NCBI GenBank assembly: GCA_048213135.1
Contig: PS015078.1
Span: 45,309 to 109,308, forward strand
Direction of reading: 5' to 3'
Source: Reclinomonas americana ATCC 50394
Lineage: Eukaryota
DNA length: 64,000 bases
Shown: positions 3,001-58,048 of the stretch, piece by piece
How positions within the stretch are numbered: position 1 is the stretch's first letter
Layout of the letters: each line of letters begins with the position of its first letter
The notes under the pieces: model-generated
Database searches by the model: none
The model's input: the letters and a program-made list of their open reading frames with translations, nothing else
Told to the model about the DNA's origin: nothing
Made by a program: the position numbers and the translations under genes

Positions 3001-6000
3001 AGGCCTTGGTCCACTCTGGCAGAGCAGACGGTGAGTGACTGGAACCTAGAATGAACGCGCAGCCAAACACACACTCAACTGCCGCTGCAATTGCTCGAGC
3101 GCAAAGTCCCGGTTGCGTACGGTCTGACGCAGCGTTTCGACATGTCCCTGCATCTCGACGAGCTCCTTTCGCAAATCCTCACGCTCGACTTGCAAACTCG
3201 TACTGTTTCGCGCATCATGAGTTCATCTGCACACGAGGCAGGTCGTGATGCCGAGACGCAACATGTTGCGGTGCACGGCCGCCAGTTCCTCATTCTTCTC
3301 TGCCAGCTCCTCCTTCACGGCCGACATCTGCGCAGGGCGTGATGATGAATGACTGAGGGATGATATCACCTGCTCACTGCACTTGGCCTCGCACCTTTTC
3401 GCGGTGCTTTCGATCGCGCTTCTCCAATCGCTTGTCCTCCTCCAGCATGCGACTCTCCAGCTTGCGAATCGCCAACTCCAGATCTTTCTTGAGCTGTGCG
3501 ACGTTGTTAGGATGACGCCCTCCCAAATGACTTGTGTGTGGCGACGCCACGCGCACCACTTCGTTGATGTTCTTCAGGCGTTCCAGGTTGTCCTTCAGGC
3601 TCGAGATCTGCCCGCGGTACTCGTCCTCTGACGACGTGCGCTCGGCCTCTGCAATCAACAATCGCTCTTCTGCCCGATCGGCCACTTCGCGCGCTCGTCG
3701 GTACTCGGCCTCCAGAGCACGACACGCTGTCTCCAGAGCACCGGCTCCGAGATCTGAGAGGGAGACAATCAATCAGTCGCCTCACCCACCACTGCACAGA
3801 AGTGCCTGCTACATACCACCCGGTTGCACCGTGTGTGATAGAGCCTCGTCATTGACAATGCGACTGATGGCCTGCACCAGCGCCGTGTGCAACAGCAGGA
3901 TGCGCTGCCGCTCAGCACCATACGTATCGGGATCCACACTTGCCGAGATAATTGCCAGCGCCTCGGCGCGTTCCACAGCATCGCTCTGCGACCCCACAAA
4001 GCCGTGTGAGTGCCTTCTCACGTGCCAGCAAAATGAGATGGAGAGAAAGGATAGTACGCACTCGTTCCTGGGAGAGCTTGGCACAGTGCTGTCGCAGTTG
4101 AAGCACCTGATCGTCGAGTTCCTGTCGTGGGTTAAATAAAACTCACACTCAGCCTCCTGTCGCATGCGCAACGTGGACACGACTACAACAACGCACTCGA
4201 ATCTGCAGGGCTTGCTCCGCTGCCGCGACACTGGCATGCTCCAATCGGGAGCGCAACTCGGCAGCCGCCACCGCCGCCACATGAGACTGCTGCGATGGCG
4301 GGGTGGCACCTGCAGTACCACTCATGTGGCCGGCGCTCGCTGTGCGAATCAACTTTTGTTGCGCCTGCAGCTGTCGGCTAACACTCTCCAACTTGGCCAA
4401 CACCTCTGCGCACGACGCATGAGAACATAGAGAAGCACGTGAAGAGTTCAAACGCTGGCGGACCTTGAGCGGAGGCGCCAGACGAAGTAGATGACATGCC
4501 GGCAGACAGGCTCTGCAGCACACGTTGTGTCTCCTCCATCGATCGCACGAGGCGGTCGGCATCAGCCACCGGCATGTCACTCTGCGACACAACACAACAG
4601 AGTGTCGGCCATCGACGCACAAGACGGAAAGAAATCTCGTCTCCTCCCTATACCTGTGCGGGCAAACCACGCTGCAGCAACGCGGCAAGCTCGCGCTCCA
4701 ACTCAGAGAGTAGCAGTCGGTAACGACCGGCCGTGAATCGGCTGCCGGTGGTGTTCAGGCTGAGCGCGCTGGCATGCAACGACGACATTTGCTCGGATCC
4801 ATCCTGCGCAGTTTGCGTCTCCACTTTAGTGAAACGAGCGATGATATCTGTAGCAGTGGAGCGGCATGTGTGCACCTGCAATGCAGTGATTGCGTCGGCG
4901 ACAGAGCGACTCTCACGAATGCGTCGCAGTGTCTGAGCGAGCTCCTCGTCAAACAGATTGCGCTGTGCTTCCAGTTTCTCGGCCAGCTGCATGACAATCA
5001 ACGAATGATGAGAGACGCAGTGCTCGTAGAGGCGTAGAGAGGAGACGCACATCGAGTTGCAGCCGTTCGTTTTCTCGACGCAGTTCATCCTCGCGCTCCG
5101 AGTAGTCCGACGAGAGTGCCTGCAGGCGGCGCGAGTGCTGCTGCTGCAGCTCTCGGTAGGCATCCTTCCAGCAGCGCAGCTGCTCCTGCAACACCTGAAT
5201 CTCCACACTGCGCACCACACGACACAGAGGTCAGCAAACAGAAGGAACAGAAACGTATGAAAAAGGAGAAGCCGAACCCTGGTGTGGATGGCACTGGAAC
5301 GCTGTCCGAGTTCGGAGCCAGAAAGTCGCCCACCATCTACACATACACACATACAGACGCCGTCAACCCTTCAGCTTGCCTACACCAGGCAGCGGCGGCA
5401 ACACGCAACAGGCGACTCGGGAACCGGAATCGGCGCGACCGAGAGCGGCGGAGGCACCGACTGCACGGCACCACCTCCCTGCCGAATCTGCGACAATGCC
5501 GACGAGAAGTCCAGCTGTGGCGTGCCCGTCACCTGTCGCCACCAGCATGAGCACCCTTGTCCCACTCTCGCCCCATGGCACACACACAACCGAACCTCGG
5601 GCGACGGCGACGGCGACTGTCCACTGCGGCGCACACGACTCAATCGCCTCGCCATCTCCGGTTGCATGTGCGGTGGTGGTGGCAGCAGCGACATGCCACT
5701 GCCTGCATCCAGCGGCGGCAGCGAACCCGACGATCCCGACTCGACTTGCGACGAGGCGGACACTGACGATTGCTGCCGCTGATGCTGCTGCTGTTGCGCT
5801 GTGCCCTCGGCCGACACCAACTCCAAGTACCGCTGCCATACGTGAGCCGGCAACGAGTCGCGCTTGTTTACAAAGTCTTGCAGGTCAGGCGACACCACCA
5901 TCCCTCGAACATCTTCTTTCCATACACAAAACACACAAATCAATGAATGAGAATGCGCAACACATAATGATGTCTCGTACGCACTTCCATTGACCGCCAA

Positions 6001-6314
6001 TGAGTCGCTCTTTGCTGTGGGCAACGATGATGACACTGCTGCTGCGTTGGGTGTCGACGACGAGGAGGAAGAGGAGGAAGACGAGTACCACGATGAGTCA
6101 TCATCCTCATCCTCATCATCATCGTGGAGATGCTTGTCATTGTCGCCAGCCACACGCACGTCATCCATTGTCGCTTGTGTAAGCTCCTCGTCCAGGCGAC
6201 GCACGACGCTGCGCCCTGGCGCACTCACTCCTGCGATTGCTGCACTCAGTGGATCGTTCTCGCACTCACTCTCTTCACACACACACATACACACACACCG
6301 TCGTCCGCAAGCAT
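70..6314 (-). CDS. Large multi-exon coiled-coil protein with Ser/Asp-rich N-terminus and Pro/Ser/Ala/Gln low-complexity C-terminus (could be two genes; start uncertain)
   Basis: Chain of minus-strand exons separated by short GT-AG introns, e.g. VEIQVLQEQLRCWKDAYRELQQQ, LEAEYRRAREVADRAEERLLIAEAER, LKKDLELAIRKLESRMLEEDKRLEK, YQRIKKEYLRKTILQMDLEKSM. The terminal exon ends at TAA (70-72). No family recognised. Confidence 0.55.
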
Positions 6315-6530
6315 GGCTCGAGGCTCGACGACGGTCAGTGTCTCTCTCTCGCTCTTGTGTCGTCGATGGAGAGAATGCAACGGACGCCCGCCACCTTTGC
6401 TTGCCAATTTTTGGTAACGAACTTCGATCTCAGAGGCGATCGACGTCGCAAGTGCGTGGCGAAACACGGATACTATGCGTATACTATAGTTGGAGTTTGG
6501 TCTAATGGATTATGTTTCTCTACTGCGTGG

Positions 6531-8569
6531 CTATCGTGCGGGTTGGTGGACTTCGGCAGGCGACGTTGAGTCGACCTTTGCCGTTTCCTCCACTTCCTCC
6601 TCCTCCTCTTCGCTGTCGGCCTCGTCGAGTGCGTCCAGCAGCGTTCGCTTGTCGCCGTGCATGTCGGCCAGCTCGACGTCGTTTTCTGGCGGATCGAGAG
6701 TCTCTGCGGTCGTTGTCGTCGTGCTGCTGCTGCTGCTGGTCGCCGCCGCTTGCTGCGTGGCTTTGAGTTGCTGGCGGCGGCGGACCAGCAGGAACACGGT
6801 CACACTGGCCAGCACAATCGCAGCGCCAGTGTACTGCAGCGGACTTGTGATGGTGCGCCTGCACAGCGAATCCGTGAGCTGCAAGCAAGGAGGCAAGTCG
6901 ATTGAAAAAATCACATACCCCAACACCACCCAGGCGAAAAACGTGGAAGACACCAGTCGCACAGGCATGAGGCTGCTGTGCGTTGGTGCACCGATTGCCA
7001 CAATCACTCTCATCTGCAGCAAGTTGATGAACCACACCAGGCCTGTGTGCGTTGTGTCAGGACTTGTGGTGTTCCGTGACTCACGACAGCAGCGCACTTA
7101 CCCACGGATTGGTATACAAGGCTAAGCCAGCCCTTCCATGTGATTCTTGCCCAGAAGGTCCAGTCTGCGCGCAATCCAGGTGAGTGCATCGGGCACGGAG
7201 CGCAGGTGTCTGGAATGCGCTGCGGCGCACTGACCTTCATTGGAGAGGTACGACACGAGGGGTGCGTAGAAGATGTGTGACATGTTCTGGAAGGTGAAGA
7301 GTGTTTCGGAATTGCTGAGAGCGACCGCAGTGAGACACGTTCCCAGTTGCCACACACAGAAGGGTACGTGAGACTTACACTCCTCGCAACGCCTTCACTT
7401 GTACTGCATGCGAGGACAAGTCACAACGGGGGTCACTGCTGCGAGACACGCACACTGGTGCAAACGTACCAAACCACACGGCCAGCACACAGGCATTACC
7501 AAACGACACTGCACGAGGGTGACAGTGAGTGATCAGAGAGGCACACGCCACGAGCATGACAGCAACGCACCTCCAATGCCAATCGCGTCGTACATGGTCA
7601 ACTCGCTAAAGCCGACGGAGAACAACTGCAGCCGGGTTCACTGTCATGCACGCTGTGGACAGTCGAGAGAAGCACAGGTGATCCACGCAACGTTGGTGGA
7701 CAGCATCAACAGCGTGCCAAATGTCGACGCCAATGCCGTCCAAACTGATTCACAAGGTCAGGCAAACTGACGACTGCGCTCAAGCATCGCAGCACGAAAG
7801 ACACGCAACTGGTGATCGACGGGATGCGTTCACCGTACACACATCGAGCGAGCAGTGCAGTCAAGAACGGCGCCGTGAGCATGACCGCTACGTGTCACGA
7901 TCGATCGAGTCAGCAACGACACAGCAGACTGTCTGCAAAGATGCATGCATGCCAGACCGGAGAAGAACACAGCTGTGGGGAGCACAGGTGAGAGGCAAGC
8001 ACGCAAGGCAGCACATAAGGAAACCTTTGGAGGACGCAACGAGAGGTTAACCGCGGCGCCCAGGCTCCCGACGACCACATCTGTCAAGTCACTCAAGTCA
8101 CTCAATCACTCACTCACGTGATCACTGGCTGCATGCGACACACTGACCAGCATGACTTCTACCATGAAGCACCAGGTGGACCATCGTTTCAGCGCAGCCC
8201 ACTGCGTTTGCGCGGTCACACGTGTGTGATTGGGAGGGGTCAGTGACTGACACACACCTTGATCTTGCCTTGTGGGATCCACACGGGCAAGAGGGCCAGG
8301 AACACGGGAAAGGTGATGATCAGGTTGCCGAGAATCGGAGGAACACCCTCGTCAAGCTGCATGTCAACTGTGTGAGAGAGCAACGAGAGAGAGAGACAAG
8401 GAGGCAATGCATTGACCTGAGTGAAGCGACCAAACACGGGAAAGGTGCCGAGGCCGACGTGTGTGACGATGCTGCCAATGTACCAGCGGATGCGTGAGAG
8501 GAGGGACTCGGTGCTCTTTGTGGCCTCCGCAGGCCCAACAATGGCCAGCGAGGAGGAGGAATGCGACAT
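6531..8569 (-). CDS. Drug/metabolite transporter (EamA/DMT-like) multi-pass membrane protein
   Basis: Hydrophobic exons YIGSIVTHVGLGTFPVFGRFTQ and GNLIITFPVFLALLPVW. The C-terminal IGAPTHSSLMPVRLVSSTFFAWVVLG..TITSPLQYTGAAIVLASVTVFLL pattern is typical of the last DMT helices. Acidic tail. Confidence 0.65.
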
Positions 8570-10790: not shown

Positions 10791-12750
10791 ATGACTGTGT
10801 TAGTGCAGTTTGTGGTGGTCGACTGCGTGGTATGCGTCCACTCTTCTCTCCCCCTCTCCCTCTCAGTGTTCATCACTCATCATCCCTTCTCTCAGTTATG
10901 CGCATGTTACACTGCACTGCTCATTGTCGGCGCTCGTCGTCTTCTCAAGCTGCCCGCCGCCAGTGGACGAACCGGAACTGAACATGCAGACTCGGCCTCG
11001 GGTGAGCAATGTTGTCTCTCCAATCAAAGGAAACCCGGCGCCCACGCATGCGCTTCTCACAGACGAAAGTTCGGCACTGATGACATCGCGTCGTGCTCTG
11101 CAACGCGTCAAGCAACGCGGTCGTCGCTATCGTGTGACTCTGTGTGTGCTGATTGTGCTGGCCAGTGTGAGTTGCGTGCCGACTGACCACACTCTTGCGG
11201 AAGAATATAGACAGTGTTCTCAGTGACGATGCAGTGCGTATCGCCTTTTTCGCCACGGACTCGGTGTTTCATGAGAATCCACGGGATCCCGATGGATGGA
11301 GACATTCAACGGGAGCGACAGCTCTGGATTTGTTCCCGGCGCTCATGTTTAGCAGTGTGCAGCTGCTGGTGCTGTTCTACTGGTCTGTCGCGCAAGCGCG
11401 CGTGTTGCTGCTGCGCCGATTGTTGGGCATGGCGTGCTCATATGCCGTGTGTGTAGGGGCCAGACGATTCGTGCGTTTCGTGTGTCGAACAACTCGGTGC
11501 CGAAGATCTTCCTGGAGCCGAGCATTCCGAGCTCACGGCACGATCACTTTGATCCGTCGCCCGTGTCGGCCGCCTCTGGTGCCGCGTTGCGTGAGTCGCT
11601 GGCCTCGTTGCCGTTGCCGGCGACTGCGTTCCGTGTGCAGTCGACGTCGTCGGTCAATAGCGGCGGCAGTGGTGCGGCGGCGCGTGCTTCCGACAGTGGC
11701 CAGTTCCAGGTGGTGTCTGTCGACGAGCATGGCATGCCTGCGTTTGGCGCTGTCCCGCACACGGGTGGCGACGTGGGCGATCAGGAGACGCTGCTGGCGG
11801 TGCCGCCCATGGCGCCCATGAAACCCAAGCAGCATCGGTGCGATCGTGTACCTTCCCTGCCGCACACATCGACGTTCTTGTTATTTTCCTCACTCTCCGC
11901 GTGCCCGCACAGACGACGCATGACGTTCCTGTTGTTGAACATTGTGGCGTACACGCTTCTCGGCATCATGCTGGTGGGTTGGGCGATGCTGCGCGCCGCA
12001 TCCTTGTCGCCACGCTCACCCACTCATCGATGCGACAGGTTTTCATGGAGGTGTTCGACGACGACTTCACTTACCAGACGCCGACGCTTCTCGGGCCACT
12101 CGGCATCGCCGTGTACATGTATGTGGCGACGCTGTTCGTGTCGTGCGCCATCGGATTCGCGGTGCTGGGCATCAAACTCATCCGCCGGCTACGACGCACA
12201 CCACTGTCGATACCCGTCGTGAACACGCGGTTGACGCCGATTTTGCGCAAAGTGACGCTGCTGACGGTCTACTGCACGCTCGTGTTTGCCACACGCAGCA
12301 TGTTTATCGCGCTGGAGTCCTTTGTCTCCGTGTTGCGTACCGATCAGTGCCTGGGAGTTCTTCCGTATCGCGACACTGACCACCTGTGCGCGTGCAGCAA
12401 AGTGAACGACTACTGGGAGAGCTTTGTGGTGCGTTGTTGTCGATGCAAGCCGGCAGCTGCGATTCGTGCTCACTGTTTACCACATGCAGGGCAACTGGCT
12501 ATTGCTGGAGGTGATTCCACTTGCGCTCGTCCTGTTGTGGATGCCCCAGGAGCGTGCACTGGAGGATGCCAGCAAGCGCGACTCGTCAGAGAGCACCGCC
12601 GCAGCTGCAGTCGCGCCCGTCGCCGACTCGGTGTACACGCGACCCGTGGCCACAGCTGCACAAAGAATACCGGCGTCGAATTCATCCTCCTCAAGCTCCC
12701 GACCTGCAGCGGTCGGCTCGCTGCCCGGACCAAGTAATAGGTCGTTGTAG
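10791..12750 (+). CDS. THH1/TOM1/TOM3 (GPR137-like, DUF1084) 7TM protein, copy 1
   Basis: Exons give DLFPALMFSSVQLLVLFYW, GFAVLGIKLIRRL, LRKVTLLTVYCTLVFATRSMF and LLEVIPLALVLLWM, matching the TOM1-family helix pattern. Divergent from the P450 gene. Confidence 0.75.
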
Positions 12751-15128: not shown

Positions 15129-15585
15129 TGTGTGTGCAGAGTGGAACGTACTGTGTGCTCGTGCTGATTGAGTGTGCTGTGATTGTAGGTGCCGCTGCTC
15201 GCTAAGTGCTCTGCGAGTTCGTGTGCATGATGAATGTGTTGAACCGGAAGAGGATGAAGGATNNNNNNNNNNNNNNNNNNNNNNNNNNNNNNNNNNNNNN
15301 NNNNNNNNNNNNNNNNNNNNNNNNNNNNNNNNNNNNNNNNNNNNNNNNNNNNNNNNNNNNNNNNNNNNNNCCTCTGCTGCTCTTATTTTGTGTGTGTGTG
15401 TTGTCTCCTGTCTGCCTATCTCCATGTCTATGCCGTCTGTGTTTTACACTCTTCTCTTTACAGTTTGTCGCCATGTGTGTGTGTGTGTGTGATCGTGATA
15501 CGATGAGGGAATGAGGGGAAAGAGACATTGCGTTTTCGTCGTTTGAGATCGTCTCCCCACCTCCCCCCGCTCCTTATCGTCATGA

Positions 15586-16330: not shown

Positions 16331-16525
16331 ATGGCTGCGCCGCCCGTGATGAGCGCCGCTGAGCGCGAAGTGAGTGTGATTGTGTCCAAGTGGGAGTTCC
16401 AGACGTACGGCTTCAGTGTGCGCACTGCCAAGCGAGCGGAAGACGGCTTGTCAGTCATTCGCGTGCTCTTCAGCCGTTGCGCGCGCAGCATCAGTTGTCA
16501 ACTGTGTGTGAGTGTGTGAGACTGA

Positions 16526-16557
<32 letters not shown>

Positions 16558-16833
16558 GCAGAACCCGATCAGACGTGCCCTGTGCCCAAGACCAGCGTTT
16601 CGGTCGACTTTTTCAAGGACTCGTCGACGGGTCGTCTCAGGTCAGCGCGCGCGCAGTGCTGTTGTGATCGGGGCGTTGGATTGCTGATGGTGAGCTATTG
16701 CAGGTATCTGCTGGAGGGTCAGCAGTTTGAGCATGACGCGGAGGAGGCGTGCAATGAGGAGTGGATTCGGCAGCTGCACGACATGAAGCGCGCGATTCGG
16801 GAACAGTTTGACTCGCTCGAGAGGCCACGGTGA
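16331..16833 (+). CDS. AKAP14/AKAP28-domain ciliary protein (3 exons)
   Basis: Spliced product VSKWEF...IRVLFSQPDQTCPVPKTSVSVDFF...RYLLEGQQFEH...NEEWIRQLHDMK matches the recalled AKAP28 pattern (WS.P....P.P..TASV.F...E.W). Confidence 0.7.
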
Positions 16834-41000: not shown

Positions 41001-41835
41001 CTCCTCCAGTGGAAACGTGTACTTTTCCCGCAACGAAACAAAGCCGCCGAGATGCGAATCATAGACACGTGCCGTCGTCCACACGTTCTCGTGCACGTCG
41101 GGCACGAGGTTCTCCACACCAAGCATGGCCCCGACCGCCGACACCGACAGCGTAATCGAACACGACGTGTACCGCACCACGCGTTCGAACTGCAACATCA
41201 CATGCAAAATGCACGGCGTGGTGACCTTCCCGGTCGCATCCGGCTCCCACACCAGCGGGAACTCGAGCTACGCGACGCAGATGAGCGCCTCGGGCAACCT
41301 AACGCACGCACGCACGCACGCAAGCCAAACGAAACCTCTCGATCCGACGCCACATTAGGCCGCGCCATCTTGTACTTATCCAGCCGCATGTCGTGAATCA
41401 CCAAGCCCTGCAGGAAGTGCACCGGGCACGAATCGCCGGCGAGAAACGACAGCAACTCCTCCACACTGAATGATGACATATCAATGAGAAGAAAAGTTCT
41501 AATGCATTCAACGCATTGGTGGAGGCGAAAAGCAATGTGTATCTGTGCGTGTGCGTGTGTGTGTGCGTGTGTGTGTTGTGCGCGCTGTGTGCGTGTGAGT
41601 CAGCAACACACACACACACACTCTCTCTCTCTCTCTCCTCTCACACACATGCGCATCAGCAGTGCACATTGATGCGCATACTCATGTGTGCGCGTGTGTG
41701 CGTATGTGTGTGCGCGTGAGTGTGTCAATGAAGACGCAACGTGATTGTGTCTGTGCCCATGGAGATCACCATCACTTTGGCATTGCTCTCGCTCTCCTCC
41801 TCCATCCAGTAGCGCACATGAACAGGGCCTTCCAT
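38003..41835 (-). CDS. TBC + TLDc domain protein (TBC1D24/Skywalker-like) with long N-terminal extension (start uncertain)
   Basis: TBC: LKNLIRRGVPGRHRGAVY, VKRILCML..YCPALP, RLFDAFLHEG. TLDc: LWSWLPRR..LMYASGRDGYSLATVY, YYGTAETFVF, FFMMGTNEAITIGGGG, SETFANDPLC..FEILKIEVYKF. Confidence 0.88.
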
Positions 41836-43522: not shown

Positions 43523-45154
43523 ATGCAGCGCAGCAGCTCGGCCAGTGCCGGCGCACAGCGCGTGCTGCTCAACAATGCCTCGGTTTGTGCGACTCGTCGA
43601 GTATGTCAGGGTGCGGGAAATGAGTTCTCACACTCACACTCACTCTCACTGGCACAGCTTTCGCGTCGTGTGGTCACTGTGCCACCCATTGAGCCACCCT
43701 CACCAGCATCATTATCGTCACTGCCATCGGCGTCGGGAGTGGGGCCTGCTACGCGCGTCCAGCCCTCATCGTTACGTCGCATATACATTGCGTGTTGCTC
43801 TCACACTCACTCACACTCTCATCAGGCGGAGACTATCGTCGGCCAGTGTGTTGACCCCGGTGAATCACCACGTGCAGCGACTGCCGAGTGTGGGCGCCGA
43901 CAGTGGCGACCTTGATTCGAAGCCGCGGGCGGTTCGTTCGGTCCCTCGTCGCACAATCTCTTATCACTCACTCACTGACACACAGGTGTCGGCTGCTGCG
44001 GCCAGCAATGCGGCACGTATATGGATGAGGTCGCGAGGATCCGGAGGAGGGAAATCGAATGCGGACGAGCGTCCGGATTCATGGCCGCAGGTGTGGGAGG
44101 TCGACGAGGAACAGCAGCAGCCGCAGCAGCCGCCGTCGTCGTCGTCATCGCAACGGCCGCGACACAGAAAGACCCCGTCGATTGGTGCTGTTCATATCGT
44201 GTATGATGAGCAGCGGCAGCGGCTGTCGGCATTGGAGCGACAGCCGGTGCTGGCAACGCCTATCCTCCGCGCCGGTGGTTCGCGCTCGTACTCGTTGTCG
44301 CCGACTCCGCCGAGCCGGTCGCGACCTATTCTTGTGTCGCCCTCGTCGCCGATGGCCACCGACGGTGCTGCAACCAGTGCGAGTGTGGACGCCATGGGGA
44401 GTCCGAGTCCGCGCGTGTCGTCGCCGCCGTCGCCGGTGGTGTCGGCGAGCTCACCAGTGATCCCCGCCGCCGCCGCTGCCACCACTGCCACACCAGCGAC
44501 GCTCGCACCGCCCGCAGCACAGCGCCAGCGACGCTCCTCTGCCTCACCAGTGCCGCTGGTGCGCAGGCTGGCCATGAGCTCACCGGCCTCATTACAGCAA
44601 CAACAACAACAGCAGCTGTCGTCGCTGCTGCTGATTGGTGGTGCTGGTCGCGCACCAGCAGTGCAAACACATGTGGTAGGTGGTGCACCTGGTTGCTTGT
44701 GCCCCGCCCACTACGTCTCACATACCCACCTCCTATTCCCTCACAGCACGCGGTCAAGCAGGCCGACACGGCGATTGTCATGCTCAGAAGGCGACAGCAG
44801 GGCGCCATCTCACCCTTGTTGCGCACCGATTCTTCTTCCGCTTATCCCTCTATCTGCATAGCTCACCCTGCAGCGCAGAATGGAGGGCTCTGTACCTTCG
44901 GCACCGCACCACATTTTCATCGGCGACATGGAGGCCTTCCGTTCGTTGAACTTGTCGCCATCCGCGGTTGAGCGATCACCGCCAGGTGTGTCACCTTTCC
45001 TTTTCCCCCTCTCTTCTTGTTCACACTAATTGTCTCTGCAGAGGTGCCAGCAAGCCGAGGACGTGTGCGCTTCGCCGCTGTCCACGAAGAGGGAATCAAT
45101 CAGCGCCTGGCCGGCTTGCGTCCACCAGCATTGATACGCAGTGCGGTGCGATAG
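43523..45154 (+). CDS. Hypothetical Ser/Pro-rich, probably disordered protein
   Basis: ATG at 43523, a series of short GT-AG introns and a long SP-rich exon (43987-44676). The terminal exon is inferred to end at TAG 45152-45154. No homology recognised. Confidence 0.55.
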
Positions 45155-45237: not shown

Positions 45238-48200
45238 TCATGGTGCACCGCCTCCGCCCATACCACTGGCGCGCGCCCGTTGTGCTGCCGCGGCAGCTGC
45301 CTGCTTGATTTTCGTGGCATCGCGCTTGCTGAAGTTCTTCACCCTGCGTCCAGCACCGACAAGGATGAGCTCGGCCATGACTTGCAAAAATCACATGCAG
45401 GCACGCAACTTGTCGACCACGGTGGTAAAAAGATGCTCCAGTCGCTCGTTGTGAGCAAACTCGCTTCCAGTAGACACTGCCTTCTCTTCGATTCCCGCCA
45501 GGCCACCGTCGGCCGTCAAAATGTCCATCACCAGGCGCAACTCGGAGAAAAGGTCCTGGCAGTTGGTGGGGAGACCAATGGCGAAGAACTCGACCAGACC
45601 GAGATCCTGCGTGAAATTGACCAGGCCTTGCAAGTTGACCGAGCGCGGCGCAGTGACCACATCCTGTGTGCGTGTCAGTGGGAGAGTCAAAGAATGACCT
45701 GCGCTCTCCGAAGTAAACACACCATGAGTTTGTTGGCAACATGCTGCAGGGTCTTGAGTTGCAGGTGCTCCAGCACCACTGCCGGCACATCAGTCATCGA
45801 GACAAATGTCAGTTGCAGGAAGCGTAGCAGCTCCTGCACCCAGTGGCCAGGTTCGTCGGCCAGACGAGTTGGTAGCCTATGGCACACACAGTGAGACGAT
45901 GCAGACGGCAAGGCCCCTCCTTACACATGCGCACCACACAATGTCGGCCGTGGCCGACATGATTTGGTCGACTCGGTGCACGACCGAGCGCAGAATCAGC
46001 TCCTGACCGCGGTTGCGGGCGCCAATGAGCTGCTCCCGGCACAGTTCGAGGAAGCGCACACGCTCGGCAGCCGGCGTGCTGTGAGCATACACGCACCATT
46101 CAGCTGGTCGCCTCTCACAAGAAGTGCAACGAATGACTCACATTTGTCGGAACTGCGACTCGGCTTGTCGCGCAAAGGTCTCCTGCTCAAACACGTCGCA
46201 GGCGAAGCGCACGTATTCGACGTCGACACAGAGTTGCGCCGACTGCTCGATCGAGTCCACCGGCATCTCGGTCATCTGGCGCTGGATCACGCTGACCATA
46301 CAGCGCACCAGATCCACCACTCCCTTCTTCACAGCATCGTTCATCTCCGGCAGATGCAGCGTGAAGCGAATGTACGAGTCGATGAACTGCTGCACGACTT
46401 GACAGAGCGCCGGCACTGCATTGGAGAATGGTAGCCGCACTGGATATCTGCAAGACGACGATTCAGAGGGGAGAGAGAGGATGAGTGAAGCGCGTGTGGG
46501 TGAAACCCACCGTTTCGGCGCCGAGTTGAACGAGTCGGGCAGGATCTGTTGCAGCTTGCGGTCTTGAATGATCTCACGGAACTCGGTCGCGCTGGAGACG
46601 CTGAGTGCTTCGAATTTCTTTGGTGACAACGCCTGTATCCATGCATTGTGCAAGTCGTTAGCAACACGAGAGAGACGCACGTCGCGAAAAGCATCTCTCC
46701 TACCTCGTCCACTTTCTCCAGCGCCTTTTGCAGCAGCACCTTGTCGAACTGGTCGCGTGCCGACTCAATATACTCGAGCAAAATGGCCACGTTGAGGTCG
46801 TACTGCTGCATCGTAAAGGTGAACGACATGAAAATGTCCTTCAGGTCGATGAAATTGCCCGGATCCCTAATGTTGCCAAACTGCGTGTCCATGAAGCCAC
46901 GTAGCAGCCGCGACGCTTCCTCCCACATGCCGGCCACCTCCACAGCGGAGATGAGGCCGCCGGTCGTGCGCAGCGCCTCTGACTCCACGACAAAGTGACC
47001 GGCCACTCGCTGCAGGTAGTCCTCCGACACGGCAAGGATCAGCTCGTCGCCCTTGAGTGCATTGCCGTCTGTGCCACACATAATCGATGAGCAAATGAAA
47101 CACCGTAGAGACATGTGGACAAGCATGACACCTTCGGCGACGGGCACAATGTTGCTGCCGCCTCCGAGGACATTCGGCGAGGCCTCGGCTTTCTTCATGT
47201 CGTGCGTGAGTTGTACCTGCGGCAGCGGCGGCGGACGTGTGAAGCAGCATCGACGAGTGCGTCACGGAGAAGACCAACAACGTACCCGCCGGTTGCCGGT
47301 ATAGTACGCCTTGAACTCGGTGACAGCATCGAGCTGCACGTAAATCTGCGCGCACAAGTACAGCGGCGAGAAATCGACTCCCAGCGAGGAGACGACATTT
47401 TCTGTTGAATAACGCAGGTTCAGCACACAGGCGAGCGTGTGTGAAGCGACAAGAACAGCACATCACCTCTGTCGGCGTCCCATTGCGACACTGCCGCTCC
47501 CGGTCGTGGTCGGAAACTGGCTCCAGATCCGCCGGCTGCGGCGGCAGCGCCTGACGTGGCACCCACGCTGTCCTCGGTCTCCTGCAGCACACGAAAAGAA
47601 CAGCAGGTGAGTTTGACGGCGGCGAAGAATGCGCATCAGTGCTGGCCCTCTCACCTCAAACGAGAAATCACGACGGCGTCGCTCATCCTCGGCACGCAGT
47701 TTCTGGTCCACTCGCAGAATGGCCAGTGAGCCAATCTCTCCAGCTAGTGACCGCGTTCTGCGTTCATGCAGTGCGCATGAGTGAGGAATGGCGATCGATA
47801 GCCACAACGCGCAGAGTACAACGCACTTTTCCAGCCATCGATTGAACTTCATGGTGACCACGTGCTTGATGCGTGTGCGAATTGCCGGGAAGCGATTCAC
47901 TGGGGCGTTGGCAAGTGAGCAAAAATGATCGCAACACCATGCAGATTGCACGGCTGGTACGCAACACAAGAACTTGGCGTATTCTAGCCGCCGCAATGGT
48001 GACAACTGCTCCTCCATTCGTTGCACCAACTGCACAAGAGAGTGAACAAGTGACGACAGTGAATGGACACCAACACGTGACTCACCATCAGCGCCTTGAA
48101 AAAGTGCGGTCTGAAACTGGACTCGCCAGGCGGAGTCCGTGCGGTCGTGGTGGCCGGTGAGGCAGTTGCCACAGCGGTCGCCGCTGCACGCGCTGCTTGC

Positions 48201-49885
48201 CGCTTGGCATGCCTCTCACTGCATCGCGAGAGGTGAGGATGTGAAGAGGAGTCGAGTTGCACATATACTCACACACACTCACCCGCCACGACGAGGTCGT
48301 GAATCGGCAGACGTCGCCGTGTCCGTGGCGTCGTCAAATCGCGACGCTCGACCGGTGCCTCCCGCGCTAGCACCCCGTTCCCTCGATCGCGCGCCGAGAA
48401 GTGCCTGTCGAGTGCGCGGTCCACTGGCCATCTCCTGCCGGTGCACCTCAACTTCCCGCGTCTCGGCTTCCTCGGCCTGCCCTCAAACTGTGAGAACAGG
48501 GAGAGGCATGAAAGGGGTATGGATATCATGCCGACGCACCTCTTGCAACAGCGTTGTGCACTTGGACGCCATGTCGGCGATCTCCTTCAAGCGCAAGATG
48601 AGAGTAAACACCTCGCGCATGTTGTCGCGCACTTTCTTGAAAGCGACCACGGTCTTGGCCTGCAGTACATTCACGGGTCAGTGAATGTTGAAGATGGGCA
48701 TGCTGTGGCGGGAAGGACACGCACGCACCAAGTCAAGTGCCTCGGTGGCCTTCACATGCACATTGGCACGCAAATCCATCATGCGATTCCGCAGCACATC
48801 GGCATCGGCGCGCGCTGTCTTGAGCTGCGCCACCGAGCGCAAAAACTCTTCGTAGTGGTCCTTGCACAGACTCTCGATACGCACCGCCTGCTGCTCCGTG
48901 AAGGCTTTCAGTTTCGCCAGAAACGACTGCGCCTTGTGCTTGGTGATGATGGTGCGCAGCGTGCCGTACGGTTGATCGCTGCATGCCGGTGAGCGACAGG
49001 AGTGACAAAAAGGAAGGCTGGCAAGCAGCAACAACACACCTCTCCACCAGACTCGACAAGAGGTACTCATCACCCGTCTGCATCAGTCGCTCGTACTCGG
49101 TGGCGGCAGCCTGCAAGCAAGCAGCGGTAAGCGACACAATCACAAAACACAGCGACCTGCTCCACCGCACCTGCTGTCTCTCCTTTTGATCGCGCTCCTC
49201 CTGATCCTCGTCGTCATCATCATCCCCACCCATTCGACCGCCATCCCCGTCACCATCGTCGTGGTGATCCATATCCGCAGACAGCCGCGAGGTGCCGCCA
49301 TTCGCTCGCCCTCCAGAAGCACCCGCCGCCGCAGTCGACGACGGCTGCGCATAGCTGCTCTCACCATCATCGTCCTCGTCGCCAGGTGGCCTATCCAGTG
49401 CCGTGTACACGTTTCCATCCTGTGCGACAATGAGCGACGCTCAAGCACAGCCAAAGACAACTGCGAGAGAGACACGAACATAGGCATCGGTGGGAATGGC
49501 TGCGCCGGTGTTATCCAAGTTGACATCGAAGATAATGTTGACAATGCTCTCCTTGTAGGGACTGGCCAGGCGAAACACCTTGTCCTTGACGACCAGAGCA
49601 AACTCTTCACCGCGTCGCGATCGCAGAATGCGAGAAATGTTCTCAATCTTGAATCTGTGTGCACACACACATGCGCGACGTGTGACACACTGAGAGAGAG
49701 GCAGAGTGTGAGAGAGAGAGAGGAGGGCATCGCAACTTCCTCTTGTACTTGAAACCCTTGTTGAGGAAGAACACAGTGGTCTCCGACACCAACAGCATGC
49801 GTTCACTCCACGACGAGCCCGACATCTTGCGCACATTGCCAGAGAACATGACATAAAAGTCGCCTGTGTGCGCGTGCAAGAGAGT

Positions 49886-49916
<31 letters not shown>

Positions 49917-50096: not shown

Positions 50097-50163
50097 ATGC
50101 TGACACGCGAAGTGGTTGCCGAGCACTATGTGAACTGGCTGCGGACCAGTTGCGTGCACTCTA

Positions 50164-50202
<39 letters not shown>

Positions 50203-50988
50203 TTGTCTCTCCTCACTCACGCGCGTCGTAGAGCCTCTTGGCTTTGATCGGTCTGTGGACTGTGCGAGGGGTCTGCAATTGGAGGAGGCCTCTGTGGAGC
50301 GTTCAGAGCTGGTTTTTCTCTTTGAGGTGCATGAGGGCGTGCGGAATGCATATGGGAACTTGCACGGAGGCGCCACTGCGACACTGGCCGACATTTGCGG
50401 ATCGGCTGCCATGTTTCGTCTGCAACTCAGCTTGTGTTTGTTGTTATGTTATGGGTTGTTCACTGTGTTTTGCAGTGTGTTTGTGGATGCTGATCATCGA
50501 CCGGGTGTGACCACCGATCTGACGGTGAGCTTCTATCGAGGAGCACCGGTGAGTTCTCGTCGAGCTGCATGCTGATGCACTGGTCGACTGCTGATCATGA
50601 CTCTCTTTGTTCGTGCGCGCGTGCAGAAAGGATGCAAGGTCGGTGGTCTGTCTTGGTGTGAGGGGCGCACGCATCGTGCTCACGTGTCTCTTCCCCATGC
50701 AGATCCGCATTCGTGCACGAGTTCCCAAGTGTGGCAAGACGCTGGCGTTCACCAGGTTGGATCATTGCGAACTCCCGCTCTCTCTCTCTCTCGTCACTTC
50801 CTCGTGGCTGACTCCTGTGTCGCGTAGTGTGACATTCGAGGATCCGGAGAAGCCGGGTTTGTTGTCTTCTCATTCTTTGCTGCTGTCTCTCGTCTCATCG
50901 TGTTGCAGGTGAGCCATTTGCGCAGGCACACATGACCAAGGCCACTGCCGGTACACCGCCAATCATGACGATGCTGGCGAAGCTGTGA
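50097..50988 (+). CDS. PaaI/ACOT13-family hot-dog acyl-CoA thioesterase
   Basis: NAYGNLHGGATATLADICGSAAI, RPGVTTDLTVSFYRGAP and KCGKTLAFT. Includes a 12-nt microexon (50627-50638). Confidence 0.9.
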
Positions 50989-53394: not shown

Positions 53395-56196
53395 TCAGTC
53401 GCGTGGTGTTTGCGCGGGTGTTACGGCTGGAGTGGGCCACCGGCCGGGGATCACCGCGGCGGAGTTGACTGAGCCGCTGACTGCAGGTCGGAACTCGACG
53501 GCTCCTGGTGAGTAGAAGCCCTTGCTGGGCGATGGTGGCATGGCACTCTTGCCGGTGGCGGTGCCGCCGCGCTTGCCCGTGTCGACCAAGAACATGACAA
53601 TGAAGACGCTCGGCACGAGCTCCAGCAGCGCCCAGAAGGCCACGTAGCAGATAATGACCACTGTCACCGAGATGGCGTTTGTCGACACCTGCGATCGAGG
53701 AAGAGAGAGCAATATGTAAGAGAGTGCACGAGTCAAGACGTTTTCCCGCCCTGCACGCCACACCTGCACGAAAATGTCGAGCAGTCCGCGAATCAGGAAC
53801 GACAGCGTGCACGTGAGGCACACGGCAAAGAGCTTGCGCATGTGACGCCGCATGGAGACGTCGCGATCCAACAACCGTGTCATGCGCACATGCAGCAGCC
53901 GTCCGTACACCACAAAGGCTACCGCCGTGGCAATGGAGAGGCCGGGGAAGAAGATCTTTTTCAGCACCAGCTGATCGAGCGGCCAGTTTTGCGCACTGGC
54001 GTCGTCACCGTCGCCCAGCAACAAACACAACACGTGCCTGTAGTGCAATGGCATGAGCACTACAAAAGGGTGCAGGGTGAGGTGCTATACGACGCAACAG
54101 GACGGCAAACGTGACAACGACGGTGACCGATGTGAACACAAAGGGATAGTTGAGCAGCGAGATGCGTGTGGGGGTCGGCGCTCGATTCGCCAGTGGCTCC
54201 CGACGCTTGGCCAGCAGCGCGGTGCTCGCATGCGGGACTGCAGCTGCTGATACTATGGAGGAGGAGGAGGACGGGGAGGAGTGAGGCACAAGTGCGTGTA
54301 GAGAGTGTGAGTGTGTGCGGAGACGTAACATGGCGACGAGTCGGTGCCGGGTGAGCCCTTGCCCGATCTGCGCCACGTGTGATTAACCACCTCGCCGCCA
54401 GAAGGCTTTTTTCCTTCAACAGGCACTCACCCCTCCTCCGGATCCACCAGCAACCGAATGGCATCGTCATCTTGCGGCGGCGAGTAGCCGGCAAAGAAAT
54501 CACGCGTCGGCGACGTCTTCTGAATGCGCAGCGGCGGCGCCGCCACAATATACCGCTCCTGATCTCGCGGCGTATGTTCCGCCGACGGCGCCGCACTCAC
54601 ATGCCCATCGGGATCCGTAAACATGCTGCTCTGCGAATCTGCGCGGGAGGAGTTGGCACGAAAACGCACTTTGTAGATAGAAAAACACGCTGCAACTGAC
54701 CAAAGCTACTGGTCCGCCCATGCGCCTGCGTCACGCCATGGAACGGACGCTGGATCGGCCGCACCGGCAACGCCGCTCGCGTGGCCTCCACCTCCAGCAA
54801 TCGCGCCAGTTGTCCCTGCATTACCCACAGTCAGCAACAAGCATCCGCGCGCGTCAAGCTCGACAGCAACGGACCCAGTAGAACACAATCAGCAAGTACG
54901 CCACTGCACAAGACGCACAACAACATGAGCACAATGACACTGCCAGTGCGCGTGGAGGGAGCAAGCCGCGAAACTGTAAAAGAGCAGAGTCACGCTCTCA
55001 CTCGAAATCTGCGGAAACGCGCGTCAGCGAAAGACCGATCACACGCAAGACAGCAAATCGTCGCACCACAAGCGACAGAGGCACAGGCATGTCCACCAGA
55101 AACTCCGCCAGGAAGATACACGCGCGACCTGTGTGTTGTCACAAAACAAGAGTCATGTCGCGCGCCATGACACACTCTCTNNNNNNNNNNNNNNNNNNNN
55201 NNNNNNNNNNNNNNNNNNNNNNNNNNNNNNNNNNNNNNNNNNNNNNNNNNNNNNNNNNNNNNNNNNNNNNNNNNNNNNNNNNNNNNNNNNNNNNNNNNNN
55301 NNNNNNNNNNNNNNNNNNNNNNNNNNNNNNNNNNNNNNNNNNNNNNNNNNNNNNNNNNNNNNNNNNNNNNNNNNNNNNNNNNNNNNNNNNNNNNNNNNNN
55401 NNNNNNNNNNNNNNNNNNNNNNNNNNNNNNNNNNNNNNNNNNNNNNNNNNNNNNNNNNNNNNNNNNNNNNNNNNNNNNNNNNNNNNNNNNNNNNNNNNNN
55501 NNNNNNNNNNNNNNNNNNNNNNNNNNNNNNNNNNNNNNNNNNNNNNNNNNNNNNNNNNNNNNNNNNNNNNNNNNNNNNNNNNNNNNNNNNNNNNNNNNNN
55601 NNNNNNNNNNNNNNNNNNNNNNNNNNNNNNNNNNNNNNNNNNNNNNNNNNNNNNNNNNNNNNNNNNNNNNNNNNNNNCGCGCGCGCGCACGCAACCAAGC
55701 AACGCCATGCTGAGGAACAAGTGAAAGAGCGAGGGCAGGCGACACCGCCATCTTCTCCTCGACGAGGCTCTCCCGCGCATCTGCAGCTCGTCTTCCACAC
55801 TGCTGCGCAACTGCAACACGCCTGCTGCAGGAGAGGCGGATGCAGACGAGGCCGAGGAGGCCGGCGAGTCAAGCGCGCTAGGCGGCGCCTGATAGAAGTG
55901 GTTGCTGTCCTCCACCAGCAGCAACACGCGACGCGAGGAGGTCACACTGGAGGGAGAGGTCTCCAGTGAGACGCGCTTTCCTGCGGGTGAGAACTTGCGA
56001 GGTGCTGCTGGTTGTGTTGNNNNNNNNNNNNNNNNNNNNTTGTGGTGGTGGTGACAGAGGAGGAGGCAGTGGAAGGGTGCTTGGCGGCGAGCCAGAAGCC
56101 GTGGAGGAGCACAAAGACCGTGCCGAGAATGTATGTCGAGAAGAGCACGATTTGGAGCACGAGGATGGCGTATAGGTAGCCGTTGTTGTCGGCCAT
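53395..56196 (-). CDS. THH1/TOM1/TOM3 (GPR137-like) 7TM protein, copy 2; spans two N gaps
   Basis: LYAILVLQIVLFSTYILG, LLNYPFVFTSVTVVVTF, AFVVYGRLL, MRKLFAVCLTCTLSFLIRG and WALLELVPSVFIVMFL. Confidence 0.75.
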
Positions 56197-56321
56197 GGTG
56201 GCTCTCTCTCTCTCACACACACACGCTCGCTCTCTCCTCTCTCTTCTTCACAGTCGAATATGCAGAGATGCGATTTCACTTCAAAGGTTGTCGGACGTGT
56301 GGATTGTGGTGTTCGTATTTC

Positions 56322-58048
56322 TCACTCTTGCTCCCAGTACGCGGCTGTATGTACGTACAAGCGTGATGAGTCAACGCGCTTGTGGAGCAGAGGAGAATGA
56401 GAGCAATTCGTTTACCTGTGTGTTTTGCGTAGAACAGCTCGGTTTCTCGTGGCCAGTACTGCTCGTGCACATCTGCATGTGAACGTGGTCAGCAAACAGC
56501 GGAAGCGCAGGGTAGAGTGCCATGCCGACGATGACGACGACGCAACAAGTAAAGTCGGCGGAACCGCCGAATCTCTTCTCCAGCTGTGCCATGTCGGCGA
56601 ACTTGGCAAAGGTCTGCGCATGCAAAATGAGCAGCAGCAGCAGCGACGATCTTCATCAGCACAGCGTCGACAACATGCCTGGTGCTTCTTCGATCCCGGC
56701 TCGCAGCTGCCCGAGGCGAACACAATCTTTCGCGACGTCACCTTGTTGATCTGCCGCGCGATCATGAGGAACACATGTCACGCAGGCACCTTGTGGACGA
56801 GCGAGGCACGCAACAAACGGCGAGATCATGGCCCAGAACATCTTGAAGTAGAACGGTGCGTCGACGACCAGCGCCAAGCCGAGGCGCTCGGGGTAGTGAT
56901 TCGACAGGATGTGCAGCACTTGCTTGCTGACCTGGTGGGTGGGTGAGGAACAAACGGTGAGCGTGACGGCGACAAAACTCCACACACACGCACACACGCA
57001 CCTTTAGTGGTGGCGCATTGCGCATGGTGAAGCCGTTGTTGTCGATGATGAGAATGATCTGCTCCACGCCGTGATGGAGCGCATCCATCTCCTCAATACA
57101 CCGCTCAATAACATACACCGTGAGGCGCACTTGTCGTTCGTGGGTGTCTGTGTTCTCACGCGCCGGTGTCATGACAATGATCGGCCGACCGAACTTATCC
57201 TTGCCTGCGACACGCGCTGTGAGCACGCGCACGACACAAGAGGGGAGGGGGAAGGCAGCGGGGACACACCAAAGCGATAGTTCTTTCCGGTGACCGACTC
57301 GGGTTCGACCTCCTCGGGGCGGATCGTCCACGGCTTGAACTCGCGACGCCACTAAATGATCGCACCACAAGCATGAGCGTCCGCAACGCAAACACCAAGA
57401 AGCGACTTACACACACCTCAATGGTCTCCTTGATCATCGGCACCGACTTTTTCAGCTTCCACTCACGCGCACGCAGATCTGCAAACACATAACAGGCATG
57501 AGTGTGAGCACGAGAGACAGAGAGAGACACTGTGCAAAGTACGCAACAGCGCAGCAGGCACATGTCATCGGCCCACGCACGCTCCCGCTCGTTCAAGTCC
57601 ATGGCATCGACCGCCTCGCGCATGCGACGCAGCTTGTCAACCTAAGAGACAGAGAGAGAGAGAGTGATTTTAGGAAGAATTCTCTTTCTCTCACACTCCG
57701 AATGCTCCACACTCGTAACTTGGTATTCATCGAGTGCGGCCAGTGGATCAAACACCGCCAGCTCGTCGCCATCGTCCACAGCAGAGCCCGACGCAATCCC
57801 CTGTCACACACACACACACACACAACAATGAGAGTGTGAACAGCAAACGCACACAGAGCGTGAAGATCGGAGATGAGAGACGCAACAAGATCGGGGCTGG
57901 AGGGCGTGTCGGGCAGGAACTCGCTGTGGAGAGAGAGGAGTGAGTGTGCATGCACATCTCCTGGTGACGCACACTCACACGTTCTCTCTTGCACAGCTTA
58001 CCCTTTGTGCAGCTCTGCCTCGGCCTCGTTCACCTCCGGGTAGTCCAT
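56322..58048 (-). CDS. CRAL-TRIO/Sec14-like lipid transfer protein (PDR16/RSC5-like)
   Basis: DDMCLLRYLRAREWK, WRREFKP, GKDKFGRPII, LSNHYPERLGLALVVDAPFYFKMFW..ISPFINKVTSRKIVF and LEKRFGG. Confidence 0.93.

Follow-up and report, generated by a model that had tools for sequence, protein, structure and literature searches.

How many classes of 5' splice site can the introns of one organism use, and can the spliceosome read some of them one nucleotide out of register? The question is raised by a 64-kb stretch of DNA from Reclinomonas americana ATCC 50394 (assembly GCA_048213135.1, contig PS015078.1, positions 45 309 to 109 308, forward strand; the whole stretch is called the window), which is eukaryotic DNA with very many short introns. 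A preliminary description of the window had listed 23 donors reading GTTGCG or a relative of it, 17 on the plus and 6 on the minus strand, and had taken them for a second donor class in which the usual consensus is displaced by one extra T. The letters were as described at all 23 sites, and none of them is preceded by G. Our analysis of the whole window indicates that GTT-N-CG(T) donors, mostly GTTGCGT, very probably form a genuine second class of 5' splice site, which would account for about one intron in five in the window.

Introns were predicted with our own small generalised hidden Markov model, whose three-periodic coding model was trained on the window itself. In the donor-blind model any GT or GC was allowed as a donor without a sequence score, while the acceptor matrix and the intron lengths were learnt from its own first pass. 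As the donor sequence is unscored, it plays no role in the choice of donors by this model. The donor-aware model is a rerun with a learnt first-order donor model, and 'both models' below refers to these two. All counts leave out a first gene model without acceptor and length terms, which was too noisy. We defined GTT-N-CG donors as class 2 and donors with G at +5 as class 1, or ordinary, donors (92 in the donor-blind set). By this definition class 2 has C at +5, G at +6 and no G at +5.

The donor-blind model yielded 172 introns with a median length of 68 nucleotides (nt). Their donors comprise 38 of the form GT-N-CG, 54 others with +5G (GTGAGT, GTGTGT and the like), 37 GTT-N-CG, 1 GTT-N-N-G, 3 GC and 39 that remained unclassified. 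The commonest donor hexamer is GTTGCG (24 donors), followed by GTGCGT (16). GTT-N-CG makes up 37 of the 169 GT donors (21.9%) compared to 171 of the 8429 GT sites overall (2.0%; binomial p 5e-27), an about eleven-fold enrichment among donors picked without donor information. In the donor-aware rerun 42 of 179 introns start with GTT-N-CG, spread over 20 of 33 gene models, so that the class is a major one in the window, as had been proposed, with 21-23% of the predicted introns in both models. The proposed enrichment of +6G among GTT donors was also observed: of 50 such donors, +6 alone carries the G in 38 and +5 alone in 9, while 2 have it at both positions and 1 at neither.

Chance, codon bias or an artefact of the gene models could be suspected here, since the models are home-made and noisy and the window is small. 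Several observations speak against this explanation, to which we assign next to no probability and which we regard as already largely refuted. The heptamer GTTGCGT occurs 46 times on both strands, compared to 15.98 expected (standard deviation 4.36, largest value 28), and none of 100 dinucleotide-preserving shuffles reached 46. The enrichment among donors was obtained without donor information. In genes oriented by homology, 14 copies of the heptamer were on the sense and one on the antisense strand, and homology gives independent support at five junctions (see below). GTTGCGT is also the heptamer most specific for donors: 18 of its 46 occurrences are donors in the donor-blind and 23 in the donor-aware model, while for GTGCGT it is 16-21 of 115. 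Furthermore, 31 of the 37 class 2 introns contain a stop or shift the frame, so their removal is needed for an open frame. Of the 23 sites listed in the preliminary description, 17 were called by the donor-blind and 18 by the donor-aware model; 21104, 21241, 24927 and 29371 were called by neither. The class 2 introns and candidates are given here by position, with the last three exon bases in lower case before the slash; 'listed' marks the sites of the preliminary description.

3203..3262, minus strand: cat/GTTGCGT, 60 nt, both models
5337..5409, minus strand: cct/GTTGCGT, 73 nt, listed, both models
7626..7691, minus strand: aac/GTTGCGT, 66 nt, donor-aware only
7745..7809, minus strand: cca/GTTGCGT, 65 nt, donor-aware only
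11171..11234, plus strand: tga/GTTGCGT, 64 nt, donor-aware only
12332..12397, plus strand: cgt/GTTGCGT, 66 nt, both models
16476..16561, plus strand: gcc/GTTGCGC, 86 nt, listed, both models
18276..18343, plus strand: aga/GTTCCGA, 68 nt, listed, without GC at +4, both models
19719..19786, plus strand: gac/GTTGCGT, 68 nt, listed, both models
19900..19960, plus strand: tta/GTTGCGT, 61 nt, listed, donor-blind, frames fit by hand; the donor-aware model took a GC at 19883
20633..20685, plus strand: cat/GTTGCGT, 53 nt, listed, both models
21104..21178, plus strand: candidate from sequence only, gtc/GTTGCGT, 75 nt, listed, in frame and without a stop, neither model
21241, plus strand: listed site (GTTGTG), neither model; both take the GT 3 nt downstream, at 21244
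21484..21551, plus strand: agc/GTTGCGT, 68 nt, listed, both models
21785..21853, plus strand: ttg/GTTGCGT, 69 nt, an exception with -1G, both models
24921..24927, minus strand: GTTGCGT heptamer listed as a donor, letters confirmed, neither model
26562..26616, plus strand: gca/GTTGCGT, 55 nt, listed, donor-aware only
26903..27008, plus strand: tgc/GTTTCGT, 106 nt, donor-aware only
29315..29371, minus strand: candidate in the Eis-like acetyltransferase gene, cta/GTTGCGT, 57 nt, listed, neither model, GNAT domains on both sides
29980..30039, plus strand: caa/GTTTCGC, 60 nt, donor-blind only
30221..30287, plus strand: aspartyl-tRNA synthetase (AspRS) gene, aga/GTTACGC, 67 nt, listed, both models
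30472..30528, plus strand: AspRS gene, gat/GTTGCGT, 57 nt, listed, in frame, donor-aware
30605..30675, plus strand: candidate, tgc/GTTCCGA, 71 nt, donor-blind only; the donor-aware model prefers cag/GTTCGTG at 30617
33429..33499, minus strand: cac/GTTACGT, 71 nt, both models
33541..33607, minus strand: aag/GTTCCGT, 67 nt, an exception with -1G, donor-aware only
33868..33941, minus strand: cca/GTTACGA, 74 nt, both models
34731..34812, minus strand: caa/GTTGCGC, 82 nt, both models
35574..35641, minus strand: cat/GTTGCGC, 68 nt, both models
37098..37175, plus strand: cga/GTTGCGC, 78 nt, listed, both models
40870..40939, minus strand: ttc/GTTGCGT, 70 nt, both models
41268..41335, minus strand: gag/GTTTCGT, 68 nt, an exception with -1G, both models
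42517..42590, plus strand: NAD-dependent epimerase gene, cca/GTTTCGT, 74 nt, listed, both models and frame
43016..43077, plus strand: epimerase gene, agc/GTTGCGT, 62 nt, listed, both models and WbgU residues 253/254
43771..43831, plus strand: atc/GTTACGT, 61 nt, listed, both models
44818..44878, plus strand: ctt/GTTGCGC, 61 nt, donor-aware only
45344..45409, minus strand: Sec15-like gene region, caa/GTTGCGT, 66 nt, both models
47900..47965, minus strand: tgt/GTTGCGT, 66 nt, both models
49655..49736, minus strand: gaa/GTTGCGA, 82 nt, both models
50149..50231, plus strand: thioesterase-like gene, cca/GTTGCGT, 83 nt, listed, both models
50413..50475, plus strand: cat/GTTTCGT, 63 nt, listed, both models
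54038..54098, minus strand: cct/GTTGCGT, 61 nt, both models
54253..54329, minus strand: cat/GTTACGT, 77 nt (86 nt donor-blind), donor in both models, acceptor differs
54904..54974, minus strand: aca/GTTTCGC, 71 nt, donor-blind only
56473..56546, minus strand: CRAL-TRIO gene, ctt/GTTGCGT, 74 nt, listed, best of 32 junctions
56751..56814, minus strand: CRAL-TRIO gene, ttt/GTTGCGT, 64 nt, listed, best of 26 junctions
57479..57547, minus strand: CRAL-TRIO gene, gct/GTTGCGT, 69 nt, listed, best of 24 junctions
57642..57719, minus strand: CRAL-TRIO gene, caa/GTTACGA, 78 nt, without GC at +4, best of 18 junctions
57801..57886, minus strand: CRAL-TRIO gene, ctt/GTTGCGT, 86 nt, both models; the profile cannot resolve the variable N-terminus
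58632..58691, minus strand: aga/GTTGCGC, 60 nt, both models
61097..61163, minus strand: aca/GTTGCGT, 67 nt, donor-aware only

Two of the four uncalled sites deserve a closer description. When the candidate intron at 21104 is read through, a run of leucines results, and a stop-free in-frame intron is invisible to gene models of this kind. The introns at 30472-30528 and 21104-21178 (both plus strand) have lengths that are multiples of three and no in-frame stop, and their retention would insert 19 and 25 residues, respectively. At 29371 an in-frame TAG straddles the donor and the models end the gene there; the donor-blind model used this intron's acceptor with a GC donor at 29380 instead. The Eis-like gene (28174-29842, minus strand) is thereby split at the TAG, with Pfam domain Acetyltransf_9 upstream and Acetyltransf_17 downstream, and is probably one gene across 29371. 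The downstream Eis exon found no solved relative.

Where exactly are these introns cut? The true donor might be the GC three bases further on (GTT/GCGT) or another nearby GT, with the GTT belonging to the exon. With the GC three bases downstream the reading frame is the same for either choice, and it takes homology to decide between GT and GC. Homology places the cleavage exactly at the GT at 43016, 57547, 56814, 56546 and 57719. In the epimerase gene the exon ending at 43015 aligns with its residues 5-139 to residues 127-251 of WbgU (3ruc_A), which puts its last residue, 141, on WbgU residue 253; in the next exon residue 2 lies on 255 and the first residue hence on 254. The two exon ends are therefore consecutive, likewise against 3ru7_A and 3lu1_A, and the GC alternative would add one residue relative to WbgU. 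For the CRAL-TRIO gene we built a profile of 81 full-length homologues found with one exon and scored all frame-compatible GT/GC-AG combinations at each junction. The spliced product with GT junctions reaches 393.8 bits. Replacing the GT by the GC lowers the score to 387.1 bits at 57547 (6.7 lost, 24 junctions compared), to 386.2 bits at 56814 (7.6 lost, 26 junctions) and to 389.5 bits at 56546 (4.3 lost, 32 junctions), the GTTGCGT junction being the best in each case. At 57719 (GTTACGA) the predicted junction is the best of 18, with 392.3 bits for the runner-up. The exon upstream of the 56814 intron ends at position 118 of the Pfam CRAL_TRIO profile and the exon downstream of the 57547 intron starts at position 38 of CRAL_TRIO_N. 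The preliminary description had argued that conserved motifs fix the junctions (R-Y-LRAR in CRAL-TRIO; LLR-Y-LRAR at 57547) and that these lie at the GT, which holds at the four GTTGCG sites in conserved protein regions (43016, 57547, 56814 and 56546), where the GC fits worse.

In variable regions the in-frame GC at +4 scores as well as the GT. In the variable N-terminus of the CRAL-TRIO protein (acceptor 57761) the GC at 57883 gives 394.5 and the GT at 57886 gives 394.3 bits, and in the AspRS gene the GC at 30475 gives 52.6 and the GT at 30472 gives 51.4 bits, so that the profile does not separate them; reading through the 30472 intron produces a 16-residue insertion against the AspRS profile. 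The AspRS junction at 30221 lies in a variable region and is not fixed by the profile. At 42517 in the epimerase gene the upstream exon matches other solved chains than the downstream exon, and the junction is anchored by frame only. Three further observations count against misplaced junctions. In 13 of the 37 class 2 donors position +4 is A, T or C, so no GC donor is possible there. The introns fall into all three phases (6, 18 and 13 sites in phases 0, 1 and 2), and an exonic GTT kept in all three phases has no coding explanation. Finally, no further consensus is seen past the putative GC donor. We therefore consider it highly improbable that the junctions are misplaced in this way, and very improbable that either misplacement or artefact accounts for the class. 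The phases of the two classes differ, most class 2 introns being in phases 1 and 2 (18 and 13 of 37) and most ordinary donors in phase 0 (50 of 92).

Next, we compared the bases around the donors of both classes. G at -1 is found in 2 of 37 class 2 donors (5%) but in 68 of 92 donors with +5G (74%; Fisher p 1.8e-13). The preliminary description had stated that all donors of the class follow a non-G base. This is too strong, as 21785, 41335 and, in the donor-aware model, 33607 are exceptions, but the association of the class with a missing -1G preference stands. The extra base is only T: expressed as donors per occurrence, GTTGCG reaches 24/94, compared to 0/12 for GTAGCG, 0/83 for GTCGCG and 1/105 for GTGGCG. 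The view that the class is the normal consensus plus one T was only partly borne out. It does not apply to the general consensus, as GTGAGT and GTGTGT have no counterpart with an extra T (GTT-N-AG furnishes 0 donors in 51 occurrences and GTT-N-TG 1 in 102), but the class does mirror the N-C-G-T subclass: the ratio of N-C-G to N-[A/T]-G is 37:1 with the extra T and 38:47 without it (Fisher p 3.7e-9). The base distribution at +4 of class 2 donors (G 24, A 6, T 5, C 2) matches that at +3 of GT-N-CG donors, just as T at +7 (24 of 37, 65%) matches T at +6 (60%). Among class 1 donors C is the commonest base at +4 (41%), and GTAAGT, the usual eukaryotic optimum, is nearly absent, with 1 donor and 6 occurrences. 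What is new here is that the extra base is only T, that only GT-N-CGT is mirrored and that the predicted pairing with canonical U1 small nuclear RNA (snRNA) is very weak.

How could such donors be recognized? Our first choice, which we hold at about an even chance, is a register shifted by one base with essentially canonical snRNAs. The N-C-G-U block, at +4 to +7 rather than +3 to +6, would be read by the same RNA elements as in ordinary donors, first by the 5' end of U1 and then by the ACA within the ACAGA box of U6, but with a displacement of one nucleotide. G+1 would lie opposite C9 of U1, the slot filled by -1G in ordinary donors, so that -1G would no longer be needed. U+2 would face C8 as a mismatch, whereas A7 would be the partner of U+3, and this pair would account for U being the only extra base found; G+6 and U+7 would pair with C4 and A3. 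As cleavage stays at the GU, the GU that pairs with U6 would be one nucleotide further from the cleaved bond than the usual five. Taken together, a block moved by one base, an extra base that is only U, the lost -1G preference and the mirroring of +3 and +6 at +4 and +7 form the pattern that a shifted U1 register predicts. We calculated duplex energies with ViennaRNA and the canonical U1 5' end as printed in PMC4856993, and the best duplex of the consensus CCA/GUUGCGU pairs G+1 with nucleotide 9, which is the shifted register.

A number of observations weigh against this reading. The junctions rest on home-made models trained on 64 kb, which merge and split genes, together with homology at five junctions, and about 39 of the 172 donor-blind donors fit no class. 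GTT-N-CG sequences that are not donors are also low in -1G (17 of 125; p 0.25 compared to the donors), from which it follows that class 2 has lost the -1G preference rather than excluding G. When the 37 sites are taken one by one, G+1 is paired with U1 nucleotide 9 in the best duplex of only 6, with nucleotide 8 in that of 14 and with neither in 17. Canonical U1 would bind class 2 very weakly whatever the register, the mean predicted duplex energy being -1.95 kcal/mol, compared to -4.8 kcal/mol for GT-N-CG and -7.9 kcal/mol for the other +5G donors (GTGAGT-type). The weak point is the obligatory C at +5, which canonical U1 leaves unexplained, as C would face pseudouridine 5; A at +5 should pair better than C, yet it is in the GTT-N-AG sequences that no donor was found. 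C at -3 occurs in 19 of 37 class 2 and in 24 of 92 ordinary donors, which would fit an unshifted exon pairing; this excess could reflect pairing with G11 of U1 in the unshifted register or, given the different phases of the two classes, codon position. As for U6, a pairing displaced by +1 is not described in the available parts of PMC11162779, where alternative U6 registers are called previously undescribed.

The duplexes that pair G+1 with nucleotide 8 lead to another explanation, in which U1, and later U6, pairs with G+1 and U+2 in the normal register while one U of +2/+3 bulges out ('bulge +2/+3' of Roca and colleagues). Such a register exists in human cells according to the accessible parts of PMC4856993, it is compatible with the best duplex in those 14 of 37 cases and with the -3C enrichment as unshifted exon pairing, and a U beside a U can bulge at either position. 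The benefit of -1G to a bulged helix should be no smaller than to an ordinary helix, whereas -1G falls from 74% to 5%. Any base could bulge, yet the counterparts with A, C or G (GT[A/C/G]GCG) supply 1 donor in 200 occurrences compared to 24 in 94 for GTTGCG, and the obligatory +5C is again unexplained. We consider a bulged U improbable as the main mode of recognition.

The obligatory +5C can be accommodated if the snRNA itself has changed. A co-evolved or second snRNA, i.e. a changed U1 5' end or a U1 or U6 variant, might complement N-C-G-U and perhaps GUUGCGU; in the simplest case G would replace the pseudouridine at U1 position 5. We give this explanation, which can be combined with a shifted register, a low but appreciable probability. 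The strict demand for +5C in class 2 (37:1), the prevalence of C at +4 in class 1 and the near absence of GTAAGT would fit, as would the fact that class 2 binds canonical U1 so weakly and yet contains the most donor-specific heptamer. The same possibility was raised by Irimia and Roy for the GTGCGTG donors of Ostreococcus (PMC2483917, as far as its available parts go). We also tested 256 guides in which nucleotides 5-8 were varied on 168 donors and 1200 decoy GTs. The best guide has G at position 5 (area under the curve, AUC, 0.743), while the canonical guide ranks 22nd of 256 (AUC 0.659), and G at position 5 lifts class 2 to -5.8 kcal/mol. The outcome is suggestive only, because a search of this type is circular and tends towards guides complementary to whichever donors are commonest. 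Against a changed snRNA stands that few RNA sequences are as conserved as the 5' end of U1, and no change in it is known from GC-rich algae with GTGCGT donors. A search of the 64-kb window with Rfam found no family at the gathering score, so no snRNA gene. Put more broadly, either U1 and U6 both pair one nucleotide further in for about one fifth of the introns, or the U1 5' end has changed (for instance to G at position 5) and supports two registers; we hold this somewhat short of an even chance.

In length, base composition and acceptor, class 2 introns resemble the other short GT-AG introns of the window. Their median length is 68 nt, that of ordinary introns 66.5 nt, and the two groups share composition and CAG acceptors. 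The 37 class 2 acceptors read CAG in 28, TAG in 7, AAG in 1 and GAG in 1 case, GT-AG ends being imposed by the construction of the model. The motif CTRAY is found 5-45 nt from the 3' end in 10 of 37 class 2 and 25 of 92 class 1 introns, about 27% each, and is weak in both. Repeated introns of the introner type were rejected: an all-against-all blastn of the 172 introns gave matches of 17-35 nt, and those listed were of the microsatellite type. (GT)n, (CT)n and (GCT)n microsatellites occur in many introns, e.g. at 16500-16550, 50160-50195 and 21115-21140 (all plus strand). The donor-aware model also contains candidate GC-AG introns at 36845 (plus, aag/GCACGT), 56678 (minus, cag/GCATGT), 19883 (plus, gga/GCAAGT) and 49941 (minus, atg/GCATGC), of which the first three carry +5G.

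A U12-type identity of class 2 was rejected as well, because its donors lack [A/G]TATCCTT. This motif occurs only at 39776 (minus) and 61440 (plus), which mark separate candidate minor introns. The first, at 39684-39776 (minus strand, 93 nt), is likely a U12-type AT-AC intron: ATATCCTT stands at its start and TCCTTGAC lies 25 nt ahead of the terminal AC, and the two exons it separates are joined in frame. The downstream exon (39547-39681) matches positions 159-198 of the 216 of the RabGAP-TBC profile. Our models, which allow GT and GC only, forced an intron of 341-353 nt over this candidate. At 61440-61447 (plus strand) a second ATATCCTT is followed by TCCTCAAC about 290 nt downstream. For ATATCCTT, 2 occurrences compare to 0.46 expected, and 2 of 100 shuffles reach 2. 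If the AT-AC intron is real, the organism keeps a minor spliceosome.

The genes around these introns are ordinary eukaryotic ones by Pfam and profile matches. The window, with a G+C content of 48-61% per 4-kb bin, encodes the NAD-dependent epimerase, a WD40 protein, the Eis-like two-domain acetyltransferase, a Sec15-like protein, the CRAL-TRIO protein, a thioesterase, a RabGAP-TBC protein and a bacterial-type (mitochondrial-type) AspRS. Our protein searches found no close relative of the window proteins, and the best matches of AspRS and of the WD40 protein are distant: the most conserved AspRS exon is 62-69% identical to its best matches, with bacteria, Balamuthia and Aphanomyces among them, and the WD40 protein, whose best database match is a denticleless homologue, shows 26% identity to a sponge protein. 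The two top-scoring AspRS matches (P0001 and P0002) are not close relatives, as an internal duplication of a catalytic-core segment inflates their scores. No relative of the window was found among the metagenome contigs searched. A homologue search with exon 19963-20367 of the gene that holds six of the listed sites found none, and a Pfam search of the short exons gave mostly no match. Upstream of this gene, a neighbouring gene contains a long acidic coding stretch of low complexity with runs of D and G (18340-19400, plus strand). The window includes 1966 N in ten runs (15263-15891, 31136-31340, 31783-32544, 55181-55677 and six shorter ones), two of which break the AspRS gene and make its middle exons unreadable.

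How do these donors compare with known systems? The papers cited here were available to us in part, and the comparison is limited to those parts. The closest analogues are the shifted and bulged U1 registers of mammals, which the preliminary description had called rare exceptions, in agreement with PMC4856993: both are proven in human cells, bulge +2/+3 is predicted for 54-68 of 201,541 human sites, and the validated non-canonical registers together account for about 1.5% of human sites. The human shifted-register sites (Roca and Krainer 2009, via PMC4856993) have the same GU start with G at +6 and U at +7, and there too G+1 is proposed to lie opposite U1 C9, with no need for -1G. They are rare and atypical and have A-rich middles, as in the tested GUCAAGU oligonucleotide, whereas the class in the window makes up about 21% of the predicted introns, has the middle U-N-C, in which +3U can pair with A7, and an obligatory +5C, all of this as seen from sequence alone. 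Donors of the bulge +2/+3 type (Roca et al. 2012; Tan et al. 2016, PMC4856993) resemble donors with a nucleotide added behind the GU, in the description of PMC11162779; class 2 in the window has no -1G preference and takes U alone as its extra base, neither of which a simple bulge predicts.

Two main 5' splice-site classes have been described in several species, AG//GUNNN, which leans on U5, and NN//GURAG, which leans on U6 (PMC11732430; LUC7 paper PMC11842720). The same anticorrelation of exon-side (-1G) and intron-side strength is seen in that system (PMC11732430), and class 2 in the window would be its extreme on the intron side. There the intron block stays at +3 to +5, whereas in class 2 it is displaced by one base. 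At the tandem donor of STAT3 (PMC11162779) the GU that pairs with U6 C42/A41 is likewise one position off +5/+6; it lies one base closer (+4/+5) and in a single gene, while in the window class it would be further away (+6/+7) and genome-wide. The AG/GTGCGT(G) donors of Mamiellophyceae (PMC2483917, PMC3879977) share with the window the GTGCGT core, a [C/T]GCAG-like acceptor and CTGAC-like branch motifs. Their genomes are intron-poor outside one region and, in the accessible text, no +1 class is mentioned; kinship with the window is unproven. Searches of the full-text literature, including papers on the introns of Mamiellales, Micromonas and Acanthamoeba, found no description of a +1 donor class of the GTTGCGT type, although donor logos in supplementary files might bear on it. 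What we describe is thus a known but exceptional pairing mode which is used here as a major class, with constraints of its own.

It is debated how the spliceosome fixes the position of cleavage, including whether U1 does no more than mark the region and to what extent U6 pairing is rigid. So far, the sites shown to pair out of register are weak human ones, numbering from a few dozen to a few thousand, plus a single gene in the case of U6. If our findings hold genome-wide, the heptamer with the highest donor specificity would be out of register in about 20% of this organism's introns, and natural test cases would number in the hundreds to thousands. The predictions are sharp: no extra base other than U, an obligatory C at +5 and absence of -1G. 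Whether the 5' end of U1 has co-evolved could be tested with the sequence of a single snRNA gene. Gene finders with a single donor matrix would misplace many exon ends in this organism. If the shifted U6 pairing is true, the G paired to the ACAGA-box C would be found six nucleotides downstream of the cleaved bond instead of five, and the organism would be a natural system in which a flexible register of the 5' splice site is the rule and not the exception.

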